Below are positions 15,263 through 47,869 of a stretch of DNA of 49,575 bases, piece after piece (positions within the stretch are counted from its first letter, which is position 1; each line of letters starts with the position of its first letter). The DNA is from Malacoraja senta (taxonomy: Eukaryota). The DNA is taken from contig CM075993.1 in assembly GCA_038087875.1 (NCBI GenBank), positions 12,340,001 through 12,389,575 of the forward strand, in the 5' to 3' direction. The notes under the pieces are model-generated. The model saw only the letters and a list, made by a program, of their open reading frames with translations. It was not told the DNA's origin and made no database searches. A program made the position numbers and the translations under genes.

Positions 15263-18200
15263 GGGCGGAGTCACAGACAAATTAATAGAGTTAAAGGTAA
15301 ATCCCAATAATCAATAATTTTGATGTTTTAATTTTTTATTAGAGGTATCTGCATATCATAGTCCAACCCAATACAAACTTTGTATAACGATTACATATTA
15401 AGTATCCAGGGTTCTGGGTACCCAGTTACCAAAGTAGCTGGGGTCCTCCTTTATCGGTTACATATTAACGTTGCCTCTAATTATTTATTTATATTTATAG
15501 ATAAGAAAAATAAAGAAATAAAGAAAAGAAATTAGAAAAGTAAGATAAACTATCAATAATACAACTTAGGAGAGGTCCATAGGTCAGAAAACGTAACTAT
15601 TCATCTAGTCCTGGGTTCAGGTTTCAGTCAGGCCTCCGCGCCGGCCCAGTCTACCCCTTCAGATCATCTATAAATGGAGACCATATTTTAGTAAATAAGT
15701 CTGGTTTGTCAATTAAGACATATCTAATTTTTTCCAAATGTAAGGTCTCTGACATCTCCATATTCCACATCATAATTGTGGGGGTAGCAGGATTTTTCCA
15801 AAGTTTTAATATTAATTTTTTCCCAATTATTATACTGTAGTCAAGGAAATTTCTTTGGCTTGTTGTAAGTTTTAGATATTGTTCTGATATGCCCAATATT
15901 ATTAATTTAGGATCGGGATCCAGTTGAGTATTAACAACTACAGAAATTATTTTAAAAATATCCATCCAGTAATTTTTAATTTTATACAATTTACAAAGGT
16001 ATGGGTTAAATTAGCCGATGAGTATTGGCATTTATCACAAATAGGAGAGATATTAGGAAAGATTCTATTTAATTTTGTTTTTGAATAATGCCGTCTATGT
16101 AGTACTTTAAATTGTATTAACCATATTAAAGAATGTCTGGCATTTATATGTTGTAAACTTTCATCCCAATTATCTTTTGTTATAGGTTGGGATAATTCCT
16201 TTTCCCATGCTAATCTATATAATTCCGTTGACGGAGTCTCACTGTCTAAAAAAATATTATAAATATAAGATATTAATTTACCTGTATTAGGGTGTTTATT
16301 CAAACATTCATCTATAATCTCTGGTTCTCTAGTTCTGTATTCTTGTGTATGTGATTTAACATAATCTTTAAGTTGTAAGTATCTAAAAAAATTATTTGAA
16401 TGTGATCCATAATTCTGTTGTAGTTCCTGAAACGAAAGAAAAATACCGTTTCTATAAAGATGTCCCATCTTTTTAATTCCATGATTTTTCCATTGTACAA
16501 AACCTTTATCCAACACTGAGGGTTTAAATGAAGGATTATTTGCAATGGGGAGAGAAAATGATAAATTATCCAATTTTAATGTCTTTTTTAGTTGTTTCCA
16601 AATTCGAATTCCACTATATATTATAGGGTTTTCACTATGGATTTTTTAATTCAATTTTTTACGAGCTAACAGGATCAGACCAATTTCAAAAGGTAAACAA
16701 TCTTGCTTTTCCATCTTTAACCAGTCTGGTTGTTGATCCATATCTTCCAACCAAAAATTCATATTTTTGACATTGACTGCCCAAAAATAAAATAAAAAAT
16801 TTGGTAAAACTAATCCTCCTTTGGTCTTGGGTTTACATAGGTGTTTTTTGCTTATTCTGTGATTCTTATAATCCCAAATAAAACTTGTCACAATGGAGTC
16901 ACAAAAAAAATAATAATAATAATAATAATCAATAATTTTAGTTGGTATCAACTTAAATTTAACTGGATGGATGAGAAACCCCAATTTCTCAAATATAGTT
17001 TTGCGGCTGAAACAGCTAATTTAGCAAAATACAGCGTTTAGAATATCATCCAGTTAGGCCATAACAAGTGTTTTTGAGCTCTGAGCAGCCAAAGCACCGG
17101 TTTTAGTAATTTGGTAAATAACCTGGGAGCTGAAGTTAACCCATTTTGCAATGCTTTAACTGTTATCATTGCCCCATCTAGCTAAATTTCAAATATCTCC
17201 GGTGATCCCTGTGAATGGAAACTGAATAGTATGTATCTTTGACATCGATGCATGCCATAAAGATCCTATGGAAATCAGTTCTTAGACAGTAACGAAGTTT
17301 CCTATTCTGAAATGTCTATACTGCACATGCAAGTTGAATCAAGGATGAACCGACATCCTCCACTTTGACAATGAACAGGCCACGCCTGCCATAATTCCGA
17401 GCCTGTCTCAAAGGCAATCCTGGCCATAATACTGAGCCTGCCTCGAAAGACAACTCTGGCCACAATTCCAAGCCTACTTGGAACCCTTGTATACTGTGCA
17501 GTATAAACTAATCTCATGTTATCATTTTTATTTGTACAAAAAACAAGTGTAAATATTACCAACTTGTAAATGGTCCACATACCTCATGTTTCGGAACGAA
17601 CCAGACCCACCTGCCTTCACGGTTACCAGTGGTCTTATGGTAAGCCCAAAGGCCCCTGATGCGGATTCTATTTCCGTCCTTGATTTGGAGAGTAGGACTG
17701 CTGGGGTGCGTGGATCCCATATTTCTCCTGAGGACCGGCTTACTGCCGATGGAGGCGTGGGGTGTGTTATCGCCGAAACAATGAAGCTTTGCTTGTCGTT
17801 GGTACCTTGATTAGTCCGACAGCTTTTGTTTCCTCATCCAGGTCTTACCTGTTTGGACAGGTTTTCCCTGAAGAGAAGATTCGGCAGCTGGACATTGCTG
17901 GCCTTACATGAGCCTGCAAATTTGGAATTTAAGGCTGGTCTGATGGCGTTCTTCTGAAAGCAGTTCATTTTGAAGTGTGCATTGCACATCAACACCAGGC
18001 CAGTAATCTTTAAAATTTGTTGGAGTTTCATTTCCTGGGTTTTCATGCCTCCTCCCATGTCACCCCAGATAGCGCTGTTCACTGCCGGCACTTTCAGGAA
18101 CAATTTACAGGTGCATGGTATCTTACAGCCGGCACCTGTTCCTGTAATGATGTAACGTGAGGTAGCTGCTGTTTGCAAAGCTTGTAACTGAGGGGAACTC

Positions 18201-19048
18201 TGGCCCCCTCTGGGTTTTCTGCCAATGGCTGGAAGCCAACTCTTCCTGCAGCAGCTCCTTCGTTTGCGAGGATATCGCAACCCTTGATGCCATGACAGAC
18301 ATTTATGGAACATTTATGGAACCTCACGCATGTACTCCATCCAGTATGTTCCCTGGACATACTTCCGAGTTTGGAGTCAGTTACCCACTGGCCCCTCGCA
18401 CTCCCCTCCACAGAGAGGGAGATTTGTAAGCAGCCCAGAAACAGGTGCTGCCGCAGGCCTCCGAGGATACCTGCGCTGATATGGCCCCGTTCCATGGACC
18501 ATATCAGGATGGAGCATCACATTTGTGGGATAAATGCCTGAGGGCGCTATCCATGCTTAATCTGGGTTAAACGTCCGAGGACGTACCCATGTATGTCGGA
18601 GGGGTCCCCTCTGGCCTGACTCGTCCGAGTCCACCGGCCTTAACCGACTTACTCTTGGCCTTACCCCCTTTCTGGGGAACCACAGCGGTCTGGAAGCTGC
18701 TGATCGCACTGTCAGCGACTCGGGTGACGAACCCGACGGCCGGCGGCTACCCGCACTTCCGTATCTCCGTAGCCGGTTCCCCCGCGGTCCGTAGCCGGTT
18801 TCCCCGCGGCCCGTCCGGACTTTGCCCCGTATATTATATGCAGCAGGAAGCTCTGTAAAAGAGATTCCTGCAAGCAAAAAACAGAACCTGGAGATAAGTT
18901 CAAAAACTTACCTGCAGGGTTTGAAACTTACCGCTGGAGGAGCGACGCACCTGCCAGCCAGTCATTGCGCAATGCGTTAGACAATAATGACATGCATGCG
19001 GGCTGGCGGGCTCTTCACGTAGTCACTCACGTGACTCCGAAGTAAAAT
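15263..19048 (-). mobile_element. DIRS retrotransposon copy C (left terminus, ORF1, RT), 3'-truncated, interrupted by L1
   Basis: Left terminus ATTTTACTTCGGAGTCACGTGAGTGACTACGTGAAGA at 19048; ORF1 'CNAHFKMNCFQKNAIRPALNSKFA'; RT 'GFLIHPVKFKLIPTKIIDY' continues past the L1 at 15263-15321 (GFTFNSINLSVT). Confidence 0.85.
15322..16923 (-). mobile_element. L1-clade LINE 3' portion
   Basis: 'KPKTKGGLVLPNF', 'IQFKVLHRRHYSKTKL..ICDKC..LTHTF..C' C-terminal Cys domain; AATAAA/poly(A) remnant ~15325-15340; 16-bp TSD AATAATCAATAATTTT at 15306-15321 and 16924-16939; target CT/AAAA. Confidence 0.9.
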
Positions 19049-19369: not shown

Positions 19370-19551
19370 GAAGATAAACATAAAATGTTGGAATAACAGC
19401 AGACCGGCTATTATATCTCTGGATATAAGGAATGGGTGACATTTCGTGTCGAGACCCTTCATCAGACACAGAGTGAGGGGAGAGGGAGAAGGTGTGAAAA
19501 CGATATATCAAAGGGGACGTGTTCAAGGAAAATGTAGAATAGATCATTATT
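19370..19551 (-). mobile_element. Penelope 3' tail with hammerhead-like motif (left half of element split by CR1/DIRS nest)
   Basis: Reverse complement GTCTGATGAAGGGTCTCGACACGAAATGTCACC at 19435-19467; appears to continue at 33075-33310. Confidence 0.7.
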
Positions 19552-20834
19552 GCAAGGTGATTATTGCAAGGCTGCATGGTGACTTAGATAGGTTGGGTGA
19601 GTGGGCAAATGCATGGCAGATGCAGTATAATGTGGATAAATGTGAGGTTATCCACTTTGGTGGCAAAAACAGGAAAGTAGACTATTATCTGAATGGTGGT
19701 CGATTAGGAAAAGGGGAGATGCAACGAGACCTGGGTGTCATGATACACCAGTCATTGAAAGTAGGCATGCAGGTGCAGCAGGTAGTGAAGAAAGCGAATA
19801 GTATGTTAGCATTCATAGCAAAAGGATTTGAGTATAGGAGCAGGGAGGTTCTACTGCAGTTGTACAGGGTCTTGGTGAGACCACACCTGGAGTATTGCGT
19901 ACAATTTTGGTCTCCAAATCTGAGGAAAGACATTCTTGCCATAGAGGGAGTACAGAGAAGGTTCACCAGACTGATTCCTGGGATGTCAGGACTTTCATAT
20001 GAAGAAAGACTGGATAGACTTGGCTTGTACTCGCTAGAATTTAGAAGATTGAAGGGGGATCTTATAGAAACTTACAAAATTCTTAAGGGGTTGGACAGGC
20101 TAGATGCAGGAAGATTGTTCCCGATGTTGGGGAAGGCCAGAACAAGGGGTCACAGTTTAAGGATAAGGGGGAAATATTTTAGGACCGAGATGAGAAAAAC
20201 ATTTTTCACACAGAGAGTGGTGAATCTCTTGAATTTTACTTCGGAGTCACGCGAGTGACTACGTGAAGAAGACCCGTCAGGGCGCCTGCGCGTCATTACG
20301 TCAGACGCATTGGCGCGAACGGACGTGAGGAGCAGCACTCTAGTGGAAATGTAGTTTGAACTACAAGGTAAATTAAAAAAAATTCAGAAGTTTCCGGGTC
20401 CGTTTCCACAGGCGCCATGGAAAAAACGGGCAAGGGGAAGAGGCGATCGGCAAAGCCGGTGGAAAGTCATGAGATTGCGGTCGGCGAACAGCTGCCTGAG
20501 ACCCCTGTACAGTCGCTGGCTGGGAGCGTAGCGACCGTGGACTTGTGTCTTAAAAGAACACAGTCAGCGCCAGTGGGGCGCAGAGCTAAGTATAAGTCCG
20601 CCAGGCCCACGGAGGAGGAGTCTGATCAGGAGGATTCGACTCCAGGGCTGGATCCCGCTTTTGAGCGGATTTCTCAAATGGAGAGCCTGTTACACAGGTT
20701 ACTCGAGCAACGCACACTCAGGAAGAGTGTAGCCAAAGCCAGGCTCCAGAAGCTAGGTCAGCAGCACCTAGCAAAGGGCTATTTGAGAGCACCCTCATTG
20801 ATGAGGCGCGTGCACAGGGTCAGCAAAGTTCTCT

Positions 20835-20988
20835 GATACAAGCGAAGACGGCAGCTGCCAGATGTTCTATGTCTGGCAGTACGATTCGCTGCTCTGTGAG
20901 AGTTCTGACCCTGACTCTGACGGTGAGGCCGATACAAGCGAAGACGGCAGCTGCCAGATGTTCTATTCCTGGCAGTACGATTCGCTGC
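20835..20988 (+). repeat. Internal tandem duplication (~96 bp period) in DIRS A ORF1
   Basis: GATACAAGCGAAGACGGCAGCTGCCAGATGTTCTAT at 20835 and 20931; single copy in related DIRS D. Confidence 0.85.
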
Positions 20989-23900
20989 CCCGTCAGAGTC
21001 AGGAGAGCCACTGGGAGAAGAAGTGGCCTCTACGATCAACTATTTTGTCTTCCATCAGCTGCAGTAGCTTACGATGGATCAAAATGCCAAAAAAGCACGA
21101 GACCCCAAGGAACTGCGTATTGCTGAAAGTACTAGCAGTGAACCAAGATATAAGGGGTCAGATGGGCGAGGGCATGTGAGCCTAAGAAATATAACTGCAG
21201 AGAATATTGAAGCTGCTGGGTTGAGGAACAACTGCATTTTTGCAAGAACAATGGATGGAGGCCAGGAATGAGATGCATCAAGAGGCACTAGGGTTGCTAT
21301 GTAGCGCCCACTTCGAGATGAATTGTTTCAGGAAGTATGCCATTCGGCCCACCATCAACCCCAAGTTGCAGCAACTCTGTAAAGCCCAGCAATGTGCAGT
21401 CATTCAACTTACTCTTCGGAGAAAAAACCTCACGAAACGTGAGAAAGAGTTGGATGATGAGGCAAAAATAGCAAGGTTGATCAAAACATCGATGGTCGGC
21501 AAGTCTGTAAAGAGGAGGTATCCTTTCAGACATCATACAGAATCCTGGGCCTACACCAGGAACAAGTCAACCATTGAAGCAGGGGCGCAGTTGGCGTCCT
21601 GCAGCGGGAACACGAAAAAGCGTGGGTTTTCCTGCCAGGAGCCAGGGACCACAGGTCACTCAGGTGACAAAGGAGGTAGGTGGACCTGGTTCTCATGGGA
21701 ACATATTAAGGTAAAAACAGCCAAATATTGGAAGCAAATTATTCTGAGTATTATTCAAAGGTTTCGAATTGATTCGATCCAAATAGTGATTTGCCATCCA
21801 GCATGTTCCTAGCAGAACACTCCAATTTCACAAAAAGAAGTGATGGAGGTTCAAGCTGAATTTGAAAACTTGTCTATAAACAAGTAATTGAAAGGTTGGT
21901 TTATCAAAACCACCAAATTGTGTTTAAATTTTCTCGACCTGAAAAGATGAGGAGTATTTTAGATCTGACAAGTCTTTAAAATTTTGTGAAGTATAGACAC
22001 TTCAAAATGGAGACTTTGAGACTACAAACAACTTATTTCAAAAGAGGTTATATGGCACCTATAGATCTGAAAGATGTATATTACTCATTTTCTGTTCATT
22101 TGTAACATAAAAATATTTGAAATTTATCTGAATGAAACAATTATGGCAATTCAAAGTTCTGTCTAATGGGTTAACTTCAGTTCCTAGAATTTCACTAAAT
22201 TGGTAAAACCAATTTTGGTGCTAATTAGAGTCCAAGGACAGATGTTGATGGCTTAACTGGATGATGTCCTAATTAGGACGAACAAGAGAATAGTACGATT
22301 AAACGAGAACTTACCAGTTTGAAGTTTGATCTTTATTTTATGAGGAGTTACGTTGAGGGATTACGTGAAGAAGAGCCCGTCCAGCCGCACACGCGTCAAT
22401 CTTCAAAGCAGCGGCGTGAAATCACAGACGACAATTACTGAAGTATGATAGTAAGATACATAAAGACTAGAACTACCAGCTCGATCTTTTATGAGGGTGG
22501 GAGCGGAGGGCACGTAATCCCTCAACGTAACTCCTCATTAAATAAAGATCAAACTTCAAACTGGTAAGTTCTCATTTAATCTTACTATTTTACTTCGAAG
22601 TCACGTGAGTGACTATGTGAAGATTTCAATGCTCTGTGATTTCAGGCCATAGATTCAATCCAGGCGCTCACTACATTGATTGAATCTAAATAAGTAAAAT
22701 AATCAATAATGCACAACCATAACATGGATGCAACCAATTAATGGTTAATTTATCACCATAATAGTAACCCCTTTATCACAAGAGGAATATTTAATACTAA
22801 ATCCCAAAATAACACCACCAAATAACCACAGGCATTATAATCTCCTTATGGTAATAGGTGAATTATTTCACTTATGCCTGCAGCCACGAGGATATGTTTT
22901 ATTAGAACATCCAATTCATTGGCCGTCAAACTTGATGGTGCCCTGGTGAAATAAGATTAAAATTTGTCAGTATCCATACTTGCATCAAGCAACACGTGCT
23001 TTAGCCATTTTTTAAATAGTCTAAACCGACACTTTCCTATGCAGCTATTTATGGCTAATAAAATACTCATACTGAACCTTTTTAAGGTTCTGATAGCTTC
23101 AATCTAACATTGTAAATGTGATACCACACATAGACGTGGATCCGTAGGATATGCTGAAACCCCAACTTACATCCTGTGATTCCACATCTACTCTGTTTAA
23201 GCAATTCATAGACATAGAGCACAATAGTAACTGTTGCTCTTTCCATCATGTCTATTCTTACTTTCTGCAATAGTTGCACTCTCTGTGCATAAACCAGTCC
23301 CCTGAACTTGACTTCCTTAATGATAATTCAAGCCAAGGACAGCACTATAATAGGTCCATAAACAAACAATATAGCATATCTCTTACATTCCAGATTATTG
23401 TATACTTGTGTCTAAGAGGTTTTAGAATTAAAATCCTTTCATAAATTTGCAGACCAAAGGGTGTAACCCTACCACATTTTGTTTTGATTCCTCCATAGAT
23501 ATGCAGTAATGGCACTCCTTGCAGTATTCATATCATTATAGCTTAACTGCTAATAAATAACGAGTTTACAGAACTCTAACACTACTGATATGTCTATAGT
23601 GTGATATGTAATAGTCAGCTTAAACAAAACATATCCCATTTCTTTATGTAAGAAATGTACTACTTCTGGGTACATCCTTCCAGATTGCAATAATATCCAC
23701 AGTACAATCTGATAGTCCTCTTCCAATAAATGTCACTCCTTAAAATCTGTAAATCAACAACCAATATGATTATGTAAAGGATGTGAATCATCAGTTATAG
23801 AGTGCACAAACAGATTAATTCTGTTTGGAAATCATAAGAGGCTTTTGTGATCATTTAAAACACCTCAGGGTACCATGGTTTTGTAGATCCAATCTAGTAC

Positions 23901-24540
23901 CACCAATACTCCCGAAACGGAATCCTGTTTGCTCATCTGTTAAATGAGAAAAATGGAAAATGTATACAAACATTTTACCCCAATGCAGCAAAAAACATTC
24001 ACCACTACTGACCCAGTATCAGACTTTATAACATATATTTAGGTAATTGGTGGTTAAATCTGGATACAAACAAGTCATTAATCGTGCTATAATATTGTTA
24101 AATTTCTTACGATTCTATATTCTATATTATCATTGATTTACATGACTTTTGAGTCTTCAACTATATTGAATCTACCTCATAGGTAGATTGCCAATCAAAT
24201 ATTTCTGGTAAATACCAGATCCAGATCACATTAGTCAGTCTATTACAAGATACTGACTTAAACCACTCGAATGATTGACATACGTTCTATTCCGTAGTCT
24301 CAAACTATGTCTAAACATGCAACTTTGCATATAAGAGCAAATAAGCTTTAGGTCATAAATGTTCCTAAAACTTACATAATGATCCCTTGTTATTTGATCA
24401 AAAGGTACTTTCTCCATATTCCATGTACCTCCACAGCTGAAAATACTTATAAGTATGACCTCAACTTAGAGCACTACCATTAGTGTGTAGCATAATGGAA
24501 GGTGTTTAGCCAGAATCCCCCTGGAGGCATTTGAGACCTA

Positions 24541-24997
24541 AGGTTGAACAAGTTAGGTCTTTATTCTTTGGAGCATAGAAGGTTAAGAGGGGACTTGATA
24601 GAGGTCTTTAAAATTATGAGCGGGTTAGACAGAGTTGACGTGGATAAGCTTTTTCCATTGGGAGTAGGGAAGATTCAAACAAGGGGACATGACTTGAGAA
24701 TTAAGGGACAGAAGTTTAGGGGTAACATTAGGGGGAACTTCTTTACTCAGAGAGTGGTAGCTGTGTGGAATGAGCTCCCAGTGGAAGTGGTGGAGGCTGG
24801 TTCGATTTTATCCTTTAAAAATAGATTGGATGGGTATATGGACGGGAAAGGAATGGAGGGTTATGGTCTGAGTGCAGGTAGATGGGACTAGGGGGGAGTA
24901 TTTATTTAAAAAAAAAAAAAATGTTCGGCACGGAAATGAAGGGCCGAGATGGCCTGTTTCCGTGCTGTAATGGTTATATGGTTATATGGTTATATGG
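24541..24997 (+). mobile_element. CR1 3' fragment ((ATGGTTAT)n-tail family) inside DIRS B
   Basis: ORF 24544-24891 'LGLYSLEHRRLRGDLIEVFKI...FTQRVVAVWNELP'; nearly identical to 43477-43885. Confidence 0.92.
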
Positions 24998-26805
24998 AGA
25001 CACTCCTGATTCATTAATATTCCAGTAATAACTGTAACTGGTAAATACATGGCCTGGCAAACGTACCATAAATTGTATTATCCGTGCCTACTATAAACTT
25101 TGATAATGCCGCAATCTAAATTCTACAGTTGAAAATAAGCAAAATTTGTAACATAGGCTTGTTTCCTGCCTAATTGAAGGTTGGTGCTCTATAATGAGCT
25201 TAATACCACTTCCAATTAAATGCCTAATTAAGAATTAGTGCTCCATATTGACCTTTATAATGCTCTATAATGAGCTACGTACAAATTCCACATAAATGCA
25301 GCCTTAATCCTGCATTCAAATCATGACCATGTGTTCTCATTTAATAATGGAACCCAAATAATCAATAACTGTGTTTGGAAACTGTTTTAGATTTATCTCG
25401 ATGGTTAACAAATCTCCAAAATGAGCTTTATTCTAACACTCATGGTTCTGTTGTAGTCCGAATGTTTCCTACAATCAGAATATGGCAATAGACCATTACC
25501 AAATGGCCCTGAGTCCTTAGTAAAGCAAATATTAAATCCAACTACCTGTCAAATAGTCTCAAGGCTGAGACTAAATATTAATACAATGCTTTAAATTGCC
25601 ATCATTGGCTTATCCAGGTAAAATAGAAAAATCTATTATACCATACACAGTCACATAGTAAAATGCTTACTTGTGAAATTGGCAGCATAACATTAACAAA
25701 TGTTATCCACTGTTTATACTGTACAAAATAGATTTATAATTTGTCAGATCTAGAATAAATCTACACCCACCATCCTTATTTGCTCTCATAACATATTTGG
25801 CATTAATTGATGGTAATGGTGAACTGACCTCTTAATCATCTCCTTCCCACAATATTTCATGTATTGTCTGAATCTACATATTCTCTTATTTTGAGAAAAT
25901 ATGTGTCTGGTTTCAAATACCTTAGTAAGAGAAACCAAATATGGGTAGAACTACATTCTAAACCCCACAATACTATATAGTATAATGTCAATTTGCCATT
26001 TTTTAGCAAGAAATGTAATCTTCCTCAACTTGTAAGTGTAAAACATTTAATATGTTTCTTACAGAACCTGACCTCCTCCTCAGGGTTTGCTTATGGCAAT
26101 TGTTATCCCCTGATCTTAGTGGAATATTATAACTTCCATATAACTCGGGAGGAGTGCGCCTATAACGCACATATGGGAAAGACAGAATTGATACTTTACT
26201 ATCCCCAGTCACCACATATTGGGAGGGAAAACTGCCTTAATTTTATCTGTTAATCACACAGGATCATATCTTTTTTGGCTAGATCTTTCTAAAAACAGAT
26301 TAATAGACAATTTAAATATTAGATGGTGTACAGAGCCCCCAAACTTAGGGTATATATTAGGTTTTATAGCACTTTTATAAAACAATTATTTGAAAGTGCG
26401 CACTACACATGAGTGCTAATTCAACCTTGTTGTGATATAAACACATGCTCTCCATCCACCTTTGGTCAAAAAAGCCTTAACGCCTGACCTGTAATTTCAA
26501 TACCCTCTCCCCCGCTGAGACTTGCTTATCATACTCAATACTGCGGGTTTATTTTTGTAGACAGCTCATACCTGGTTAGAACCTGGAGCTGCTGGGAGAG
26601 TAAGTATTTTATTGACATAGTTTATTTATCTCCCAATGGTTCCCTCATCTTTTTGGAACCACAACTTTAATATATTGTGCCAACTCTGGTCCTTTGGCTC
26701 TGTATTGGGCTCTAGGCCTCATATGATCCGTTTACTTGAATCTTTGTATGAAATAATCCTCCTCATGGAGGAGCGAATTTACATCCTGCTTCGGGTATCT
26801 CTAGC

Positions 26806-27380
26806 GCTGGATCTCCCATAGGCCTATGCATAACAACCCTTCCAGTTGCTCTCCATGCGGGCACTCCTGTAGGCCCATCATAGGCAGCCCTCTTTCAGGT
26901 GCTGCTGGCGCTGGCTCACCTGTAGGCCAACGCTAACTTCCAGATATAGTTGGTGCTGGCTCTCCTGTAGACCAACGTACCTTACCAACCATTTGCTCAC
27001 ACTGGCTCACCTGTAGGCCAGCGCTGAACCGGATTTTTCCCCCAAATATTTCCTATGCTGGCTCTCCCTTTAGGCCAACATTGAGCCGGACCTTATAAAG
27101 CACTCCATGCGCTGGCTCTCCTCTAGGCCAATGCTAAACCTGGACCTCCATCAGGTACCCCTGCACTGGCCCTGTAGGGACAATGTTAAAACAGACCTTC
27201 CCTAGGCACTTCATAAGCTGGCTCTAATTTAGACCAAATAGTTAACCTGGACATTCCCCAGACATTCCCTGCATTGCCCTGCAACTAGGTTTTTAAAATA
27301 TAATAAACCAGTTACCTGACTCAGGCATTCCCTGCATTGCCTTGTAACTAGGTTTTAAATATAACCAACTAGTTACCTGA
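26806..27380. repeat. Degenerate tandem array (~45-56 bp units) in the 5'/ORF1 region of DIRS B
   Basis: Core GCTGGCTCWCCTGTAGGCCAA at 26806, ~26858, 26910, 26955, 27001, 27057, 27111, 27165, 27217, then two ~63 bp units. Confidence 0.85.
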
Positions 27381-28770
27381 AACGGGGATCTCCGGTCTGA
27401 CTTCTTTAACGGCAACCTCTTATCTATGCGATCTATATAGCGCTAAACGGCAGCCGTTTTTTAATTTTAATTTTAATTTTAAAAAAAATTAAATTTAAAT
27501 TTTTTTAAAGGGCGCCCGCTACTCACAGACCCGCGGTCTGTCTGAGCACTCTGCGGTACACCTCCACAATTTCCTTTATTATGACTTGTATTTTATTACT
27601 ACAAGTCTTTTAAATCGCCTAAACTTACCTTCAGGTTTTTTACTTACCGGTTTGGAGGAGCACTGCTCGCTCCAAACATCGGCACTTTGCTATGTGTCTG
27701 TACGATATGACGCGTGTGCGGCTGGGCAGGCTCTTCATGTAGTCACTCACGTGAGTCCGAAGTAAAATTAGTGAGTTATCTCTCTCAATTGTTCAATCCA
27801 CTTTTGGAAGTTTGGGGTTAATTCATCCAGAGAAATCAAGGTTAATGCCACTTACAACAATTGATTATTTTAATTTCACAATTGATTCAATTGACATGGT
27901 AGTAATTTTACCCAGGGTAAAGGGTAGAGCTGATTGATGGTTGCATTAAGCTGTTGAAAAAGCAACAATCTTCAATTAAGACAGGTGGCCAGCTTGCTAG
28001 GAAAATTAGTGTTAATTCCAGCAATACAATATGGGCCATTGCACTACCAGCAGCTACAGACGGCAAAAAGAAAAGGCACTGAAATGGTATCCATCTGTGG
28101 ACAGATGGAATATGGAAGAGGCATTATTTTTTGCAGACATGGAGAATCAACGTTTTACAACTGTTGGGAGGCTTATGAGCTCCAAGCTTGTTGTTAATAC
28201 AACTAATCTGCATGTTCAGCTTCAAATTAACAATACTACAGCAATGGCATGTATTAATCGTATGGGTGGAATTAAGTCGATGACATGTGACAAATTGGCT
28301 AATCAAATCTGGACTTGGTGTGTTGATAAATATTTGGTTTCAGCTATTTATCTACCAGGTAGATTCAATATAGTAGCAGACACCAGGTTATGGGAATTTC
28401 CATGATAACAAAGAATGGATGTTGAATCTTAAGATTTTAATGATATAGTAGTCAGATTTGGGAAGCCAGATACGACTTGTTTCCATCCAGACTCAATCAC
28501 CAGTTACAGAGATATGTGTTATAGGAACTACATCGGGAGACAGTAGCGATTTATGTTTTCTCACTACATTAGGGTGGTATGTTTTTATATGCATTTTCCA
28601 TCATTCTGTCTCATAAACCGGTGTCTGTTTAAAATGAAGCAGGATGCTGCCTCTGGGGTACTGGTGGTACCGGACTGGTCTACGCAGCCATGGTTCCCTT
28701 TGATATTGGAATTAATGACACAGTTTCTGATAAAGGTTCCCAAAAGAAGGTATTTACTGGTGTATCCAAT

Positions 28771-31337
28771 AAATAAATACACCTAACAGTAGTAGTGGAG
28801 TTGGGGATGGCATCAAACAGGAAATTAGAAATGCGTGCAACAAATGTAAAACGGTTATAATGGGTGACTTCAATCTACATATAGATTGGGTGAATCAAAT
28901 TGGCAGAGGTGCTGAGGAAGAGGATTTCTTGGAATGTATGCGTGATGGTTTTCTAAATCAACATGTAGAGGAACCAACGAGAGAGCAGGCTATTCTAGAC
29001 TGGGTATTGAGTAATGAGGAAGGGTTAGTTAGCAGGCTTGTTGTGCGTGGCCCCTTGGGCAAGAGTGACCATAATATGGTTGAGTTCTTCATTAGGATGG
29101 AGAGTGACATAATTAATTCAGAAACAAGGGTTCTGAACTTAAAGAAAGGTAACTTTGAGGGTATGAGACGTGAATTGGCCAAGATAGACTGGCAATTGAT
29201 TCCTAAAGGGTTGACGGTGGATATGCAATGGAAGGCTGCATGGATAAACTACAACAATTGTTCATCCCAGTTTGGCAAAAGAATAAATCAGGGAAGTTAG
29301 TGCATCTGTGGATAACAAGGGAAATCAGGGATAGTATCAAAACAAAAGATGAAGCATACAAATTAGCCAGAAAATGCAGGCTACCAGAGGACTGGGAGAA
29401 ATTCAGTCCAGCAGAGGAGGACAAAGGGTTTAATTAGGAAAGGGGATATAGATTATGAAAGAAAACTGGCAGGGAACATAAAAACTGACTGCAAAAGTTT
29501 TTATGGATATGTCAAGAGAAAAAGATTAGTTAAAACAAATGTAGGTCCCTTGCAGTTAGAAACAGGCGAACTGATCATTGGGAACAAGGACATGGCAGAC
29601 CAATTGAATAACTACTTTGGTTCTGTCTTCACTAAGGAAGACTTAATTAATCTGCTGGAAATAGCAGGGGACCGGGGGTCAAATGAGATGGAGGAATTGA
29701 GGGAAATCCAGGTTAGCCGGGAAGTGGTGTTAGGTTAATTGAATGGATTAAAGGCCGATAAATCCCCAGGGCCAGATAGGCTGCAACCCAGAGTACATAA
29801 GGAAGTAGCCCCAGAAATAGTGGATGCATTAGTGATAATTTTTCAAAACTCTTTAGATTCTGGATTAGTTCCTGATGATCGGAGGGTAGCTAATGTAACC
29901 CCACTTTTTAAAAAGGGAGGGAGAGAGAAAATGGGGAATTATAGACCAGTTAGTCTAACATCGGTAGTGGGGAAACTGCTAGTCAGTTATTAAAGATGGG
30001 ATAGCAACACATTTGGAAAATGGTGAAATCATTGCACAAAGTCAGCATGGATTCATCATGTCTGACGAATCTTAAAGCATTTTTCGAGGATGTAACTAGT
30101 AGAGTGGATAAGGGAGAACCAGTGGATGTGGTATATCTGGACTTTCAGAAGGCTTTCGACAACATCCCACATAAGAGATTAATATACAAACTTAAAGCAC
30201 ACGGTATTGGGGGTTCAGTATTGATGTGGATAGAGAACTGGCTGGCAGACAGGAACCAAAGAGTAGGAGTAAACGGGTCCTTTTCAGAATGGCAGGCAGT
30301 GACTAGTGGGGTACCGCAAGGCTCAGTGCTGGGACCTCAGCTATTTACAATATATATTAATGAACTGGATGAGGCAATTGAATGCAACATCTCCAAGTTT
30401 GCGGATGACACAAAGCTGGGGGGCAGTGTTAGCTGTGAGGAGGGTTCTAGGAGGCTGGAAGATGACTTGGATAGGCTGGGTGAGTGGGCAAATACATGGC
30501 AGATGCAGTATACTGTATATAAATGTGAGGTTATCCACTTTGGTGGCAAAAACAGGAAAGTAGACTATTACCTGAATGGTGGCCGATTAGGAAAAGGGGA
30601 GATGCAACGAGACCTGGGTGTCATGGTACACCAGTCATTGAAAGTGGGCATGCAGGTGCTGCAGGCAGTGAAGAAAGCTAATGGTATGTTAGCATTAATA
30701 GCAAAAGGATTTGAGTATAGGAGCAGGGAGGTTCTAATGCAGTTGTATAGGGTCTTGGTGAGACCACACCTGGAGTATTGCGTACAGTTTTGGTCTCCTA
30801 ATCTGAGGAAGGACATTCTTGCCATAGAGGGAGTACAGAGAAGGTTCACCAGACTGATTCCTGGGATGTCAGGAATTTCATATGATTAAAGACTGGATAG
30901 ACTCGGCTTGTACTCGCTGGAATTTAGAAGACTGAGGGGGGATCTTATAGAAACTTACAAAATTCTTAAGGGGTTGGACAGGCTAGATGCAGGAAGATTG
31001 TTCCCGATGTTGGGGGAGTCCAGAACAAGGTCACAGTTTAAGGATAAAGGGGAAATCTTTTAGGACTGAGATGAGAAAACATTTTTTACACAGAGAGTGG
31101 TGAATCACTGGAATTCTCTGCCACAGAATGTAGTTGAGGCCAGTTCATTGGCTATAATTAAGAGGGAGTTAGATGTGGCCCTTGTGGCTAAAGGGATCAG
31201 TGGGTATGGAGAGAAGGCAGGTACAGGATACTGAGTTGGATGATTAGCCATGATCATATTGAATGGCGGTGCAGGCTCGAAGGGCCGAATGGCCTACTCC
31301 TGCACCTATTTTCTATGTTTCTATGTCTATGTTTCTA
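28771..31337 (+). mobile_element. CR1 LINE (partial EN + RT), 5'-truncated, inserted in DIRS A
   Basis: 'MGDFNLHIDW', 'SDHNMVEF', ORF 30020-30889 RT 'KFADDTKL'; TTTCTATG tail. Confidence 0.95.
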
Positions 31338-33074
31338 ATTGGAGAGTAACACCAGTTTTATGCCTGAATGGATCCGTTAATTTGCAGGTTTTAAAAAGAG
31401 GATTGTCTGGGCATACTGTGGACATGCTTACAGCAGTCTGGCGGAAGAGCACTCAAAAGCAGTACATTTGCGAATCTGAGGTTGTGATTCTGTAAATGCT
31501 GCTTTCCCATTATGTAAAGAATGGAAAAAATTTCTGTGTACAAAAGAGTATTGAATGTTGTACGGCACATGTCTCAAATGTCTTCGGTTTTCTCAACACT
31601 CTATTATGAGAGGTTGAGTTATATTGTGCGATTTATTCAGCCAGAAGTACATTGTCCTCGTTTTTTATTGATGGGGTCAGAAAGACATCCTGTTGTGTCT
31701 CGTTCTTTCATTTCCAGATTAATGAAAGGAATTTTAATTCCAGACCTACTAAACCTAGGTATGGCAATCTGGAATATAGAGTGGTTTTAAGCTACTTCAT
31801 CAATGGACTCTTGGTACGATTCTGATTTTGGCCAAATTCAGCATGAAGGTAGTCATGCTTATGGCACTTGTAACAAGCACAGAGAGTGCAGACATTACAA
31901 AAGTTACAGATACACAGGATGGAAATACCTCGGGATAATGTTATGTTTTACATTTATGACCTACTCAAATGAAGTAGGGTCAGGTGTGACAGGATTCAAG
32001 AGTGTTTTATTAGCGTATTCCATGGATCCATGTCTATGTGTTAAGACATATTGGTTGCAATACATTGAGGCTACAAAGGTCTTATGAAATATGAAAACAA
32101 GATTGTTTATCATTCACGAAAAACCATACAAGATAGTGTCAGTTCAGACTATTTCAAGATGGTTAAAACAAGTCTTGGTTGCTGCAGGTGTTAACAGTGA
32201 TGTTTTTACATCCCATTCGATTTAGCAGCAACATCGGCGGCCAGGGCGAAGGAAGTCCCGTCGACCATATTTTCGCAGCCGCCGGGTGATCTAATAAGTT
32301 GGTGTATTGCCAATACGGGGCTGTTTGCAGATACTTTATTAAGTTCTGCTTAAATTCCCCAGGGTTAAAGGGGATACTGTTAATTCTATTATTCAAATAA
32401 ATGAATTACTGCATTTTTTCATGCAAATGTCATTAATGCATTATTGATTATTTCTCATTCCGAGTCAATGCAGTGAGAAGCCGGGATTTGAATCTGCGGC
32501 ATGAAATCACAAAGCTTTAAAGTCTTCACGTGGTCACTCACGTGACTCCGAAGTAAAACAGTAAGATTAAACGAGAACTTACCAGTTTGAAGTTTGATCT
32601 TTATTTTATAAGGAGTTACGTTGGTGATTACGTGCCCACCACGCTCAACCCTCTTTCATAAAGATCAGATGGAAGTTCTAAAATTTACTCGTTTTTACTA
32701 TGTTACTATGTTACTTAATTATTGGTGTTTTGTGATTTCACACCGCTGCTTTGAAGATTGACGCGCAGGCGCCCTGACGGGTCTTCTTCACGTAATCACC
32801 AGCGTAACTCCTCATAAAATAAAGATCAAACTTCAAACTGTTAAGTTCTCGTTTAATCTTACTATTCTCTGCCACAGAAGGTAGTTGAGGCCAGTTCATT
32901 GGCTATATTTAAGAGGGAATTGGATGTGGCCCTTGTGGCTAAAGGGATCAGGGGGTATGGAGAGAAGGCAGGTACAGGATACTGAGTAGGATGATCAGCC
33001 ATGATCATATTGAATGGCTCGATGGGCCAAATGGCCTACTCCTGCACCTATTTTCTATGTTTCTATGTTTCTAT

Positions 33075-33974: not shown

Positions 33975-34198
33975 TAGACACAAAGTGCTGGAGTAACTCA
34001 GCGGGTCAGGCAGCATCTGTGGAGAACATGGATAGGTGACGTTTCACACAGTGCTGGAGTAACTCAGCAGGTCAGGCAGCATCTCTGGAGAACATGGATA
34101 GGTGACATGTCACAGAGTGCTGGAGTAACTCAGTGGGTCAGGCAGCATCTCTGGAGAAAAGGTATAGATTATATTTCGGGTTATGACCCTTCTTCAGT
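33975..34198 (-). repeat. Three tandem 66-bp Penelope-tail units ending in a hammerhead-like core
   Basis: GTGCTGGAGTAACTCAG at 33985, 34051, 34117; reverse complement CTGAAGAAGGGTCATAACCCGAAA at 34174-34197. Confidence 0.85.
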
Positions 34199-36182: not shown

Positions 36183-37537
36183 TATCCATGTTCTCCAGAG
36201 ATGCTACCTGACCCATTGAGTTATTCCAACACTTTGTGTCTATTTTCCCTTCACCCAGGCTTTGTTTGAGGCTGGATCAGATGGGAACATCAGGGAGGTG
36301 ATGGCGTCCAGAGAATGGATCTGATTTTCAACTAAAGCAGAGTTGTGTGCTAACCCCAAGGCTCTTCTTGGATGGGCTCCTCGGGTCAATCAGTCAAAAA
36401 GTGAACAACATGAGGAGTAAGAACTGGTTAATTGAGACCTGGAGTGAAAGTCCTCTGGACCTGACATGCTACTTAATACAATAACTAGACGTGAGAGGGT
36501 GGGACATGGGAGACAATTTAAACCATGGTGACGTCAGGCAGCGGCAGCAATAATAAATTATTTTAATTGCCGCTAATGAGCTGAAGGGAACGGTGCAGGA
36601 GGTGACATTTCCAGCTCAGCCACATGTCATCAATCGGTAAACGTGACATCATCACATCACGCACCCTGTCTCATTTCATCTTCTGTGACCGATTGTTAGC
36701 TGTGGTGGTGGCTGGGGCTGTGGCCGCGTCCTACCCAAACCCAAACCCTAACCACACTCGATATTCCCCCGTCACCTCACTGCTACCGACGTAGAGGCAC
36801 ACCTCAAAAATCCCAGTGTGCAAAACCTACAAAGTGGTTTCCCTAAACACCAATTTTTTTTTTACTCTAGGGGAAAAAAAGCACCTTCAACAGTTTTGGG
36901 ATTTCCACAGATTACAAGATACCTTTATACAGCAATGATGTTAAGGACATTAATAGTAAGATTAAATGAGAACTTACCTAAGTTTGAAGTTTGATCTTTA
37001 TTTTATGAGGAGATACGTAGGTGATTACGTGAAGAACCCCGCCAGTGCGCCTGCGCGTCAATCTTCAAAGCAGCGGTGTGAAATCACAAAAAACAACAAC
37101 CGAAGTAATATAGTCTCATAATAAAACGAGTAATACAAGAACTTCCATCTGACCTTTATGATAGAGGGTATGGTCGTGGTGGGCACGTAATCACCTACGT
37201 AACTCTTCATAAAATAAAGATCAAACTTCAAACTTAGGTAAGTTCTCGTTTAATCTTACTATTTTACTTCGGAGTCACGTGAGTGACTATGTGAAGATTT
37301 TAAAGCTTTGTGATTTCATGCCGTAGATCAATCCCGGCTTCTCACTGCATTGATTGACTCGGAACGAGAATAATCAATCATGCATTCATAATAACATTTG
37401 TACCACAAATGCAGCAATTCATTTTAATAATGAAATTAATCAGATCCCTTTAACCATATAACCATATAACCATAACAGCACGGAAACAGGCCATCTCGGC
37501 CCTTCAAGTCCGTGCCGAACATTTAAACCAGAGGAAT

Positions 37538-38460
37538 TTATACAGAACTTAAAATAGTTGCTGCAAACAATCCCGCATTAACAATAGGCCGATGGTAAAA
37601 ATGTTGCGAGGATATGGTCGACGGGGAGGTCTTTCGCCCTGGCCGCCGACGTTGCTGCTGCCCTAGTCGAGTGAGACGTAAAAACATCAGTGTTAATACC
37701 AGCAGCTGTTAAGACTTCTTTTATCCATCTGGAAATGGTCTGTACTGAAACTCTCTTGTGTGGTTTCTTGTGTGATCAACAACCCAGTTTCCATATTTCT
37801 CAAATTCTTTGTGATCTCAATGTATTTTAACAAATATGTCTTAACACAGAGACAAGGATCATTTGGATATGCTGCTAGCACAATTTTAAATCCTGTCACA
37901 CCTGGCCTACTTTGCTTTAGTAGGTCATAGATATAGAATGTAACCTTGTCTTCAGTTACTTCCATCCTGTCTATTTGTAATTTTCCAAGTGTTTGCACTC
38001 GTTGTGCTGTCACTAATGCCATATGCATGACTACTTTCATACTGAGCTTGGCCAAAGGTAAAGACACACTTGGTGACCATTCACGAAGTAGTTTCAGTAC
38101 CACACTTACATCTCAGATTGTCATGTACCTAGGTTTCGGAGGTTTGGAATTAAAGATTCCTTTCGTTAGTCTGGAAACAAGTGGGTGTGACCCAATTGGG
38201 TTTCTTTCTGAATCCAGAACCAAATACGAGGACAATGCACTTCTGGCTGAATTAATTGCACTATAACTCAAACCTTCATCATAATAAAGTTTTGACAGAA
38301 ATTCTAAAACATTTGAAATATCTGCAGTACTATATTCCACATTCTTTTGTACACAGAACGCTTCCCATTTCTTAATATAAGAAAGGTACTGTTTTTGAGT
38401 GTTCTTCCTCCAGGCTGCCGTAAGCATGTCCACAGTACGCTCAGACAGTCCTCACCCCAG
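37538..38460 (-). pseudogene. DIRS tyrosine recombinase (frameshifted)
   Basis: 'AWRKNTQKQYLSYIKKW', 'LSYSAINSARSALS', 'ALVTAQRVQTL' (catalytic R), TCTCACTCGACTAGG = SHSTR (HxxR), 'FYHRPI' (Tyr); a short deletion precedes the Tyr. Confidence 0.9.
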
Positions 38461-40370
38461 AAAAGGCCTTCTTAAAACCTGCAAATCAACAAATCCAAAC
38501 GATGGATGTTGTTCCCCTGTTACAGGGTGCAGCAATAGATTACTCCTTTTTGGGACTTTCATCAACGTTTGTGTTGTAAATTCTAATATTAACGGATACC
38601 ATGGCTGTGTAGGCCAATCTGGTACTACTAATACCCCTGAAGCAGCATCTTGCCTGATTTTAAGCAAACATCAGCTTATGAGGCAGAAAGGTGGAAATAT
38701 ATATGAAAACATACCACCCCAATGTAGCGAGAAAGCATCAATCGCCACTGCTCCTGGATCTGGTTCCCATGAGACATATCTCGATAGCTGATGATTCAGT
38801 CTAGATGTGAACAAGTCGATGTCTGGTATTCCAAATCTGATTACTATGTCATTGAATTCCTCTCGATTCAACATCCATTCTTTATTATCATGGAACTTTT
38901 CATGACCTTGTGTCTGCTACCGTATTCATTCTACCTGGTAGATGGATAGCTGAAATCCAAATGTTATTTTCAACACACCAAGACCAAATTTGATTAGCCA
39001 TTTTGTCACATGACACCGACTTGATTCCACCCATATGATTAATATAGGCAACTGCTGTTGTGTTTATCAATTTGAACTTGAACATGCTTATTAGTTGTGT
39101 TAGAACAGTAAGCTTGGAGTCCATAGAAACATCCTAAAAGCTCCAAATTGTTAATTCCACATGTCTGCAGTAACAATGACTCTTCCTGATTCCATCTGCC
39201 TCCGCAGCTAGATGCTAAGTCAGTTGCACCCTATCCTAGTGCACTGGCATCAGTTTGTAATATCATGGAAGGTTGTTCAATCAGCACTTTGCTGGAACTG
39301 CTTGAGATGTAGAATCCACCACTGCAGATCAGAAACAGCATTTGTTGTTAGTTGCATGGTTCTATCAAAATGACCAACATGCATTCTCAGTGCCTGTTCT
39401 TTAACTCTCTGTTGATAATGTAATGGTCCGTATTGGACTGCTGGGAATGCTGCTACTAATTTTCCCAGTACTCGAGCCACCTGTCTGATTGAGGGTTTTT
39501 GCTCGTTTAACAGATTACTGCAATCTTTAATCAACTCCACTCTTTTTCCCTGGGCAACGTAATTTTCATTTGGACTTAATCAATTGTGAACCCCAAATAA
39601 TCAATTGAGGTACATGGTGTTAACCTTGATTTCTTTGGATGAATTAGAAACCCCAAATTTTCAAAAGTTGATTTCACAACTGCAACAGATGCTTCTGTAG
39701 ACTGTTTTGTCTTTCCTATAATCAAGACATCATCCAAGTATGCCATTAGTACATGCCCCTGGCTTCTCAGCAACCCCAGAATTGGTTTTAACAATTTTGT
39801 GAATATTCTGGGAGCGGACGTTAACCCATTAGCCAGGGCTTTGAACTGCCATAACTGGTTCATCCATTTAAATTTAAGATACTTCCTATCTTCCGAGTGA
39901 ACAGACACTGAATAATATGCATCTTTTAAATCTATAGTTGCCATATAACATGCTTCTGAGATAAGTTGTTTGGCAGTCACAAATGTCGCCATTTTAAAAT
40001 GTCTAAATTGAACAAAAGGATTCAGACTTGTCAAGTCTAGAATAATCCTACATCCATCCTTTTTTGATCGAGGGAATACATTTGACACAAATTGGTGAAT
40101 TTGGTAGACTGATTCTTCAATAACACCTTTTATATATAGGATTTCAATTGCAGCTTGAACCTCCATCACTTCTTTTTGTGCAAAGTGGAGAGTTCTGCTA
40201 GGAACATGCTGGACAGGCAAATCATAATTTGGATTGAATTCAATTCGAAATCCTTGTATACTATTCAGAATTACCACATCTGAAGTAATCTTCTTCCAAT
40301 TGTTATAGTCCAAATGCCTCCAACATTTGGACTTAATCCAGTAGTATGTTCCCATGAGAACCAGGTCCAC
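38452..40370 (-). pseudogene. DIRS RT - RNase H - DNA N6-adenine methyltransferase-like polyprotein (frameshifted)
   Basis: 'RIILDL', 'IDLKDAYYSV', 'YLDDVLI', TDAS (ACTGATGCCAGT ~39243-39254), 'NTTAVAYINHMGG', 'IDLFTSRLNHQL..YVSW.PDP.A.AIDAF', 'FPPF', 'VVPDWPTQPWYP'. Confidence 0.92.
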
Positions 40371-41536
40371 CTACCTCTTGAGTCATTTGAGTACCCTGAG
40401 ATCCCTGGGTTCTCCCGGAAGCACCCCCACCGGTTCTTGCTCCCGCTGCAGGCCGCGAACTACGTCCCTGCGTTGATGAGCGACTTGGTCCTGGTCCAGG
40501 ATCCGTATGATGTCTGAAAGGATACTTCCTCTTTACAGACTTTACAACCATTGATGTTTTCATCAATCCTGTTTTCGCTTCATCTTCCAACTCTTTAATA
40601 CGTCTCCCGAGATCCTCTCCAAAGAGCAAGTTGGGTAATTGTATATTACTTGGTTTGCAGAGTGCTGCGAATTTTGGATTCATAGTAGGCCGTATAGCAC
40701 CTTTCCTCAGACAATTGATCTCGAAGTGGGTGCTGCATAGCAACCCCAGTGCTTCCTGATGCAACTCCGTCAACTCTTGGCTTTTATCCGCTATTCTGGC
40801 AAAAGCAGTTATTCCAGAACCCAGCAGCTTTAATATTCTCTGCAATTTTAATTCTTGAGTTCTCATAGTCATACTCAACTGATTCCAGATAATTTGATTC
40901 ACTGCAACACGCAGTTACTTGGGGTCTCATGCTTTCTTGCAGTCTCATCCATCTCCTGCTGTTCCAGCTGATGGGAAACCAAGTAATTTATTAAGGAGGC
41001 CAGTTCTTCTCCTAACGGGTCTCCTGACCCTGACGGGGCAGCGAATCGTACTGCCAGTGGTGGAATATCTGCCAGCTGCCGTTCTTCACCTTGTATAGCC
41101 TCACCGTCAGAGTCGGGGTCAGAACTCTCATGACCCATAGCACGCTCCTCATCCCCGAGGGTGCATTCCATCAGCCCTGTACCAGGAGCTGTTGAGCTGC
41201 TTCCAGCAGCTTGGATTTCAGTACACTCCTCTCTGAGTGTACTTTGCTCCAACAGCCTATGTAAAAGGCTTTCCATTTGGGTAATACGCTCAAAAGCAGT
41301 ATCTAGCCCTGGAGCTACTTCCGTTGGCTGGGACTCCTCCTCCGTGGGCTGTCGGGATTTAAACTTCGCCTTTCGCCCGACAGGCGCTGACTGTGTTTTA
41401 ATCAGCCCAGGTCCACAGTCGTTATGCTCACCGCTGGCGACTGTACCGGGATTAGAGGCGGTTGGTCGCTACCCGCAGCCTCCCGACTTTCTGTCGGCTG
41501 AGTCGCTCGCCTCTTCCCCCTGCCAGTTTTTATCAT
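40333..41536 (-). pseudogene. DIRS ORF1 (gag-like), frameshifted
   Basis: ORFs 41402-41590, 40899-41276 and 40333-40902 are homologous to DIRS A ORF1 ('MESLLHRLLEQ', 'LHQEALGLLCSTHFEINC'). Confidence 0.8.
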
Positions 41537-41651
41537 GGCGTCTGTGGAAAAAATTCCCACAGACCCACAATAAACGGACCTGGAAAACATGAAAAAAGTT
41601 TCTACTTGTAGTTAAAAAACTACAAATCCACTAGCTCCTCACGTCCGTTTC

Positions 41652-43885: not shown

Positions 43886-44096
43886 GGTTTGTATCATCTG
43901 CAAACTTGCTAAACTTGCTCTGTAAGTTCTCATCCAAATCATTGATGTAGATGACAAACAGTAACGGGCCCAGCACTGAACACTGAGGCACACCACTAGT
44001 CACAGGCCTCCAGTCTGAGAAGCAACCTTCCTTCCACCATGACCCTCTGCTTCCTTCCCTGAAGCCAAATTTCAATCCATTCAGCTATCTCTCCCT
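43886..44096 (-). mobile_element. CR1 RT fragment
   Basis: '[33 protein letters not shown]'. Confidence 0.88.
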
Positions 44097-47359: not shown

Positions 47360-47556
47360 AAACTCTGTAATCAAGATTTTACCGAACAAACACGACCCCA
47401 GAATAAGTTTCACACTTACCTGTAGGGTTTTTAAACTTACCGCTGGAGGAGCGACACGCCTCCCAGCCAGTCATGCGCAATGCGTTAGAGGTATTAATGT
47501 GCATGCGGGCTGGCAGGCTTCTTCACGTAGTCACTCACGTGACTCCGAAATAAAAC
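47360..47556 (-). mobile_element. DIRS left-terminus fragment (copy E, same family as C)
   Basis: Highly similar to 18890-19048, including TCTTCACGTAGTCACTCACGTGACTCCGAA. Confidence 0.88.
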
Positions 47557-47869
47557 AGTAGTTTAGTGCCTCTCTCTCTCCGGCATTCAATGTAAAGAAT
47601 AACACATAATGCTGAAAATTAAAATGTAGCTTCATATCTGAGAAAGGGCAGTTGGGGTAACTGTGATGCTGTGCCCTTCACCCCCAGTGGGAATATTAGT
47701 TCAAGCCGGTGAACACTAGCTGTAGCTCTGTTCAATCTGCAGTTTATTTTGTAGTCAACTACTTCAGACCAGTCGACAGGTAGATGTGAATTCAAACCCA
47801 CAGACCAGACAGCAAGGTCAGTCTGCTGAGAGTAAACATACAACTCATCAGAATTCCCTTATATTCTTC

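Follow-up and report, generated by a model that had tools for sequence, protein, structure and literature searches.

Among non-autonomous retroelements, those of the LARD, TRIM and mini-Ty1 types are internally deleted derivatives with intact ends and no coding capacity, and TOC1 carries split direct repeats (PAT type) and is devoid of recognisable genes for reverse transcriptase (RT) or tyrosine recombinase (YR). The present analysis concerns two DIRS1-like elements, designated A and B, in a window of 49,575 nt from Malacoraja senta (GenBank assembly GCA_038087875.1, contig CM075993.1, positions 12,340,001–12,389,575 of the forward strand). B is inserted in A, and A lies in a fragment of a CR1 long interspersed nuclear element (LINE). 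We consider it likely that both represent recent insertions of two full-length non-autonomous families, the genes of which were largely broken beforehand and the copies of which were probably made and integrated in trans. Unlike LARD, TRIM and mini-Ty1 derivatives, A (4587 nt without its nested inserts) and B (5017 nt without its CR1 insert) are near full length and retain alignable gag, RT, RNase H (RH), methyltransferase (MT) and YR sequences; unlike TOC1, they have ends with inverted terminal repeats (ITRs) and an internal complementary region (ICR), full-length degenerate copies of every gene and a vertebrate host.

DIRS1-like elements have been tabulated from Dictyostelium (DIRS-1) and molluscs (AcaDIRS1/2, LgDIRS1/3) (PMC3266345). 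A and B resemble the elements described there in the order gag, RT/RH/MT, YR, in their inverted non-identical termini, in the ICR and in the ATT at the ends and at the circle junction; the ITR core measures 36 nt here and 31–36 nt in those mollusc elements. By the selection set out in the same source, elements were chosen for recognisable domains and highly degenerate copies were omitted, whereas in A and B all open reading frames (ORFs) are destroyed and the ends are young. Insertion into another DIRS copy is known for DIRS-1, for which an experimental account states that the ICR is needed and that RT can act in trans; there, the question of other proteins in trans is left unanswered, and YR action in trans lay beyond the reach of the assay (PMC7192593). 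TOC1 of Chlamydomonas reinhardtii is described as a non-autonomous DIRS retrotransposon (PMC9940879) and is thus, as A and B would be, an element of DIRS order that moves without enzymes of its own. Complementation in trans is on record for defective endogenous retroviruses (ERVs; PMC5029938) and in helper-donor systems of Ty1 (PMC7192593), in which, as proposed here for A and B, defective templates with only cis signals are copied by the proteins of another element. The ERV and Ty1 systems use long terminal repeats (LTRs) and a DDE integrase, whereas A and B would require a YR acting on the circle junction. Non-autonomous DIRS elements and a trans-acting RT are therefore known already. In the open literature searched (subscription papers and Repbase lay outside the scope), no description was found of full-length degenerate families of the ITR/ICR type in vertebrates, cartilaginous fish included; such dead families in a vertebrate are apparently new, absence from print not being established.

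Identity and nesting of elements A and B

Judging from their sequence, A and B are full-length DIRS1-like elements (Table 1). Over RT and RH, both can be aligned with a profile built from 98 intact pol ORFs of DIRS type (600–730 aa, out of 120 proteins listed from a protein search; frameshift-allowing alignment). In the MT-like domain, segment A2 and B follow this profile through its DLFA and FPPF columns; several profile members carry PF05869. The YR remains, broken in both elements, show 116/286 (A) and 101/281 (B) identities to the YR part of protein P0010, which carries PF00589. Both elements possess non-identical ITRs and an ICR complementary to both extremities. A PAT/TOC1-type or Ngaro identity was ruled out because the termini are inverted, with an ICR and no split direct repeats, and a deleted derivative of LARD/TRIM type because the remains of gag, RT, RH, MT and YR can all be aligned over almost their whole length.

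A single trinucleotide, ATT, stands at both ends of A and of B. Two sister CR1s contain one ATT at the empty site of A (junction comparison), and for B the corresponding joint, 22288→27766, skips 5477 nt and represents A without B in two public sequencing runs (X1 and X2, see below). At the insertion sites of both A (20233/32867) and B (27768/22288), ATT is followed by CTC in the orientation of the respective element, an observation from two cases only.

The ITR cores of A are identical in 36/36 positions, confirming the initial annotation, and those of B differ by 3 substitutions and a 3-nt gap; the outer parts are divergent in both elements. The further description of the termini as intact applies insofar as they are young and cleanly joined. 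They are not perfect: in addition to the differences between the B ITRs, 6 mismatches separate the ICR of A from its ends and 7 that of B. Element C, the least decayed DIRS1-like copy in the window, was used as internal control and as possible helper-type lineage. A and C are 78–83 % identical at the DNA level over three segments; B and C are 81–91 % identical over the last 420 nt and 56–76 % in the interior of B. The gag remains of A include a 69-nt internal duplication (20835–20903/20931–20999), and about 160 nt of its RH are deleted near 28066–28100, the largest loss seen in A or B. Relative to C, the YR of A has a 36-nt insertion at 31466–31501.

Insertion age and coding decay

In the model for DIRS-1, each round restores the ends by means of the ICR and the right ITR (PMC7192593), so that the mismatch between ends and ICR should date the insertion. 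For A, 6 distinct mismatches in ~112 nt correspond to 2.7 % per copy and for B, 7 mismatches in ~113 nt to 3.1 % per copy (5–6 % pairwise for both elements). The host CR1 carries 17 private changes in 662 columns when compared with two close sisters, i.e., 2.6 % (95 % confidence interval 1.5–4.1). These three clocks agree on 2.6–3.1 %; in the CR1 nested within A, 20 of 662 columns carry private changes, and all clocks lie near 1.5–3 %. Since only 7 of 39 listed substitutions are of the CpG-decay type, CpG decay alone is inadequate for the private changes. That A resides in a young CR1 nearly identical to its sisters, as initially annotated, thus holds (96.4 % and 94.3 % identity). The open frame of this CR1 (19440–20258), which had been cited along with it, is weak evidence by itself, because it offers only ~220 codons and would stay open in ~19 % of cases at the assumed CR1 lesion rate.

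The coding regions are considerably older than these insertion dates. In RT/RH/MT, 19 frameshifts and 6 stops were counted in 1.52 kb of A, 20 and 11 in 1.28 kb of B, and 5 and 3 in 1.83 kb of C; the corresponding YR lesions in ~0.9 kb are 14, 17 and 5. Frameshift density accordingly reaches 12–16 per kb in A and B, versus 2.7 in C and ~1.5 in neighbouring CR1s. The latter value, given per copy, derives from a sister pair to which the CR1 nested in A belongs; over 2.37 kb the two differ by 10 indels, of which 7 shift the frame. Even at a generous 4 frameshifts per kb, Poisson probabilities are at most 2e-5 (A) and 5e-7 (B). Of the profile columns conserved in 90 % of the 98 ORFs, A retains 77/99, B 50/87, C 104/110 and a further element of the window, D, 30/38, compared with a mean of 97.3 % in intact proteins (Fisher test: A vs C, P 4e-4; B vs C, P 4e-10). 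Simulated neutral decay fits best at ~8–10 % for A and ~20 % for B; when set to 4 %, it reproduced the damage of A with P 0.006 and that of B in 0/1000 runs. C is compatible with post-insertion decay (P 0.14–0.85). The dN/dS ratio of A vs C (0.26) mixes functional and dead phases and is of no use as a test.

Coding decay of 8–10 % (A) and 20 % (B) thus stands against insertion ages of 2.6–3.1 %, so that the initial idea withstands the comparison of divergence with the host CR1, which had been proposed as a check. Poisson statistics, simulation and clocks agree with the earlier contention that decay after insertion does not easily account for the damage. B is necessarily younger than A because it is inserted in A; it is also richer in AT (GC content 37.4 % vs 41.7 % in A), and since it is nevertheless twice as decayed, the paradox of broken young copies, with an RT and YR of A riddled with stops and frameshifts, is real.

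Other copies and the origin of the lesions

Out of 24 public sequencing runs listed, none of them as RNA, four (X1, X2, X3 and X24) were aligned on positions 20100–28900 at 85 % likeness; X3 is the one run used from among those with 31-mer shares of 0.05–0.08. X1, X2 and X3 cover 30/30 bins, X24 covers 13, and the contigs match A and B at ~97 % overall. Exact 31-mers of 20100–28800 are present at shares of 0.49 (X1) and 0.42 (X2); a private change of 2.0–3.1 % predicts 0.38–0.54, and private decay no more than 0.17. Likewise, a different letter holds at least 30 % of the depth at 244 (X1) and 265 (X2) of 8801 positions, where the independent clocks (2.6–3.1 %) predict 229–273 and private decay from an intact parent ~1190. 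At 20 of the 40 rows seen, no contig with the letter of the window occurs in X1 or X2, and much of the signal must therefore stem from other copies. Mean depth over the A interior is 3.2–4.0 times that over the B interior in three runs, with up to tens of distinct contigs at the listed positions. X3 is very thin (186 aligned contigs vs 67,610 for X1) and yet has similar CR1:A:B ratios, which leads us to infer a mixture of several copies among its contigs. Were these contigs instead derived from the orthologous locus in a related species, the lesions would have to date from near the insertion all the same.

Individual contigs share the lesions directly. X3 record 32 (28328–28618, 291 nt; 13 substitutions, 0 gaps) crosses the frameshifts at 28388, 28434 and 28472 with more than 31 nt on each side. 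X24 record 22 (21841–22064) differs by 7 substitutions and 1 gap letter where A lacks 13 letters relative to C in 7 events, and X3 record 27 (21738–21965) has most, not all, of the losses of A in common (4 gap letters vs 13). In B, X3 record 31 (25764–25993; 8 substitutions, 0 gaps) crosses a frameshift near 25850 that was called by four alignments. In each of the 10 spans of A that were compared, fewer gap letters separate A from the contig than from C. Disabling lesions thus appear to be common to independent copies for part of the lesions, as judged from contigs crossing frameshifts without gaps in three pol spans. The A and B families therefore appear to grade into sublineages whose lesions are in part shared throughout, in part shared by some copies and in part private, which several rounds of copying would predict. 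Joints in X1 at 24532→24997 and 24535→25002 correspond to B without its CR1 piece. X2 record 9 aligns to the first base of A (20233) and continues into 866 nt of other sequence at low depth; by its coordinates it would be an A-like left end at another insertion site, and none such was noted for B among the records seen.

Since the clocks are young, the interiors old and lesions found in other copies, much of the damage probably predates insertion and is common to many copies, some lesions being private. The dead elements would have been transcribed from their left end, and packaging and reverse transcription would have been performed by a helper, with Gag and RT supplied in trans by an intact relative. 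The ends would be rebuilt through the ICR at each round, the interior would keep the damage gathered since the lineage lost autonomy, and integration at ATT would be mediated by the YR of the helper. Over several rounds, selection would act on no more than the ~400 nt of cis sequence at the termini; alternatively, template switching would supply fresh ends from the helper. The chance that a 20 %-decayed fossil keeps at most 3 changes in 67 nt of its ends is small (P 3e-4); the one-time revival of such a fossil would rarely preserve ends like these, and it is therefore more likely that they were selected repeatedly or that fresh ones were captured.

Several points weigh against this account. 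Truncated DIRS-1 was reverse-transcribed in trans, and the experiments reported in that source detected no complete cycle (PMC7192593). An intact helper was not found. The comparison with the runs uses contigs, not reads, from X1, X2 and X3, which may differ in species from the window and may partly include this very locus, and for detail it draws on 40 of 390 rows for substitutions, 12 of 60 for indels and 32 of 124,486 aligned pieces. The count of differing positions is biased downward, as short contigs align only where they fit. Among the 32 pieces seen, 21 lie in or reach into non-terminal parts of A or B, 5 of these without gaps and the others with 1–14 gap letters. The stop of B at 23855–23857 is private (different in 98–100 % of the depth), and extra letters follow 22023 in 37–43 % and 28195 in 17–35 % of the X1/X2 depth. 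The prediction that the disabling mutations would be common to other copies is accordingly borne out at frameshifts in the three pol spans, fails at this B stop and holds in part at two indels of A, which are absent from 17–43 % of the depth; “dead on arrival”, as the initial annotation had it, describes the bulk of the damage and not each lesion. Moreover, families that are autonomous would be expected to conserve their termini as well.

Had the defective copies spread as DNA, with no reverse transcription involved, either through segmental duplication or because a recombinase excised old genomic copies and integrated them anew, shared lesions and many copies would be expected just as much, and ATT junctions prove the action of a recombinase, not of an RT. 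Such a spread is nevertheless unlikely, because A and B vary independently (the A/B depth ratio above; joints for A without B and for B without CR1), because one A-like left end has a different flank (X2 record 9), and because in an old copy the divergence between ICR and ends should equal the decay of the interior, whereas 5–6 % pairwise are observed. An intact insertion long ago that decayed in place, with the host CR1 and the termini rejuvenated by gene conversion, could draw on very abundant templates for CR1 and DIRS ends (X1 depth of 0.8–4 million in those bins) and would suit the private lesions. We regard it as very unlikely, for it requires gene conversion to have acted separately on the two host flanks and on each of four termini, leaves the 31-mer shares unexplained and is at odds with gap-free matches of 95–97 % to broken interiors, the chances of which are 6e-5, 1e-4 and 4e-15 under private decay.

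That all lesions are private, through ordinary decay at the age of the host CR1 or through one burst of hypermutation (editing or error-prone RT), is highly improbable, even if C fits such decay with its 5 frameshifts in 1.83 kb and the host clock interval extends to 4.1 %: the 4 % simulations speak against it, and other copies share lesions in at least three pol spans. Editing-type hypermutation was rejected, as the differences between A and C are indel-rich and strand-symmetric (C>T 44, G>A 36, A>G 43, T>C 28). Local assembly error, named beforehand as a condition that could undo the case, can hardly be credited. Many lesions are indeed 1-nt deletions, some of them in short runs; however, the CR1s on the same contig carry only the ~1.5 frameshifts per kb given above, frames of 264–457 codons are open nearby, the frameshifts are spanned without a gap by independent contigs, and among the 244 differences in X1 there are 157 transitions.

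The search for the intact helper, suggested with the initial annotation, failed in protein searches and motif scans. In the protein searches, in which the species is seemingly unrepresented so that a blank says little, the best of the long pol relatives shares 54 % identity with C, the best partial relative, among proteins of 144–461 aa, reaches 73 %, and an ORF of the A gag region had no match. A 26-nt terminal motif gave 0 loci in metagenome contigs and 0 in viral contigs. Two candidates remain nearer to hand. X2 records 11–12 (depth 273) are 12–14 % from A, where C is 20–21 % from A, and look like a homogeneous younger family near the distance expected of the parent of A. The lineage of C is another candidate, its ends matching and its lesions fitting decay in place, but C itself is broken, inter alia by loss of about ten codons near the YR end. 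A broader proposal, to which we give nearly even weight, is a guild of DIRS families with interiors 60–80 % alike and a near-invariant 37-nt left end/ICR, all served by the RT and YR of one intact family; all seven copies of this 37-nt sequence in the window, from five elements, lie within 2 substitutions of one sequence.

Setting of the locus and implications

The window consists of repeat-rich vertebrate DNA, mostly LINE and DIRS debris, with CR1 types that point to a cartilaginous fish and with the last coding exon of a LACTB-like gene at 3664–4266 (+) (Beta-lactamase Pfam; mitochondrial LACTB structures, E 1e-69). The DIRS nest lies ~16 kb downstream of this exon. A broken RT followed by a GIY-YIG-like stretch (19–2259, +) is, we assume, probably a Penelope-like element, and the remains at 15651–17020 (−), adjoining element D at ~16930, are presumably of an L1-like ORF2. 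Additionally, a 66-nt unit in 2.7 tandem copies (33979–34158) recurs at 3111–3207, 2368–2459 and 36182–36257, possibly the head of a short interspersed nuclear element (SINE).

Table 1 Features of the DIRS1-like elements and associated CR1 sequences in the window
Feature	Position	Strand	Evidence and remarks
Host CR1 LINE fragment, left part (3' end of RT, frame open)	19569..20235	+	96.4 % / 94.3 % to two sister CR1s
Host CR1, second part (3' end and tail)	32864..33068	+	alignment
DIRS1-like element A	20233..32866	+	ATT at both ends
A left terminus: divergent left end and 36-nt ITR core (20260–20295)	20233..20295	+	repeat comparison
A gag (ORF1) remains, many indels	20417..21700	+	tblastn to N-terminal part of P0010; alignment to C
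A RT, 5' part	21730..22288	+	7 frameshifts, 4 stops; stop hits catalytic YLDD motif
A RT end, RH, MT	27769..28772	+	12 frameshifts, 2 stops
CR1 of host's family, ~2.5 kb, inside A between MT and YR	28773..31338 (boundaries approximate)	+	95.4 % to 12322–14717
A YR remains	31369..32300	+	14 lesions in 920 nt; frameshift breaks HSTR motif
A ICR, complementary to both ends	32523..32634	+	34/37 left end, 74/78 right end; one mismatch counted in both
A right ITR core (32759–32794) and right extension ending in ATT	32759..32866	+	
DIRS1-like element B, inverted within RT of A	22289..27768	-	ATT at both ends
B right ITR and right extension	22289..22398	-	
B ICR, reads as circle junction of the two B ends	22511..22623	-	76/79 and 33/37 to ends
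B YR remains	22850..23720	-	17 lesions in 880 nt; frameshift-aware alignment to YR part of P0010
B RT/RH/MT remains, split by CR1 piece	23760..26024	-	20 frameshifts, 11 stops in 1.28 kb aligned
CR1 3' fragment, 464 nt, inside B, arrived after insertion of B	24535..24998	+	97.1 % to sister 43473–43889
B 5' region: degenerate ~50-nt repeat array and 63-nt tandem pair	26795..27380	-	repeat families; TRF
B left terminus (left end and ITR core)	27707..27768	-	
DIRS1-like element C, least decayed copy in window, 5' end lost at CR1	36952..41634	-	RVT_1 E 8e-23; Phage_int_SAM_4 E 6e-7
DIRS1-like element D, 5' fragment (left end, gag, part of RT), heavily broken	16930..19048	-	30/38 invariant columns, 7 lesions (4 of them frameshifts) in 0.44 kb

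Element D may be a third lineage that was dead on arrival, given its near-perfect left end and the density of lesions in its RT; it has neither an ICR nor a dated host, and its 3' half was not found within the window. Element E is a 5' DIRS fragment like D. An isolated 145-nt DIRS left end at 47414–47557 (−) is 88 % identical to that of D. C contains a 73-nt CR1 3' tail just after its YR (37452–37524), which corresponds to the tail found on the CR1 piece within B. A and C have in common a +1 shift before the MT domain (28388/38902) and shifts at about the same place after RT (27920/39540); these coincidences were set aside as evidence, since at the lesion density of A they can be due to chance. 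In the 5' array of B, a joint going back 73 nt in X1 and X2 suggests a variable number of units.

High-copy dead families with fresh ATT junctions would answer, in nature and for a vertebrate, the question of complementation in trans, and they would provide ready donor-helper pairs. When DIRS copies are dated by how far they lie from an intact consensus, their age can be overstated three- to sevenfold, and the mismatch between ends and ICR is usable as an insertion clock, as paired LTRs are. If the guild exists, dead full-length lineages such as B would have ridden its machinery for many rounds, through ~17 % of neutral divergence, without shrinking, and such families would constitute natural evidence for a whole DIRS cycle of the ICR type in trans, across families.

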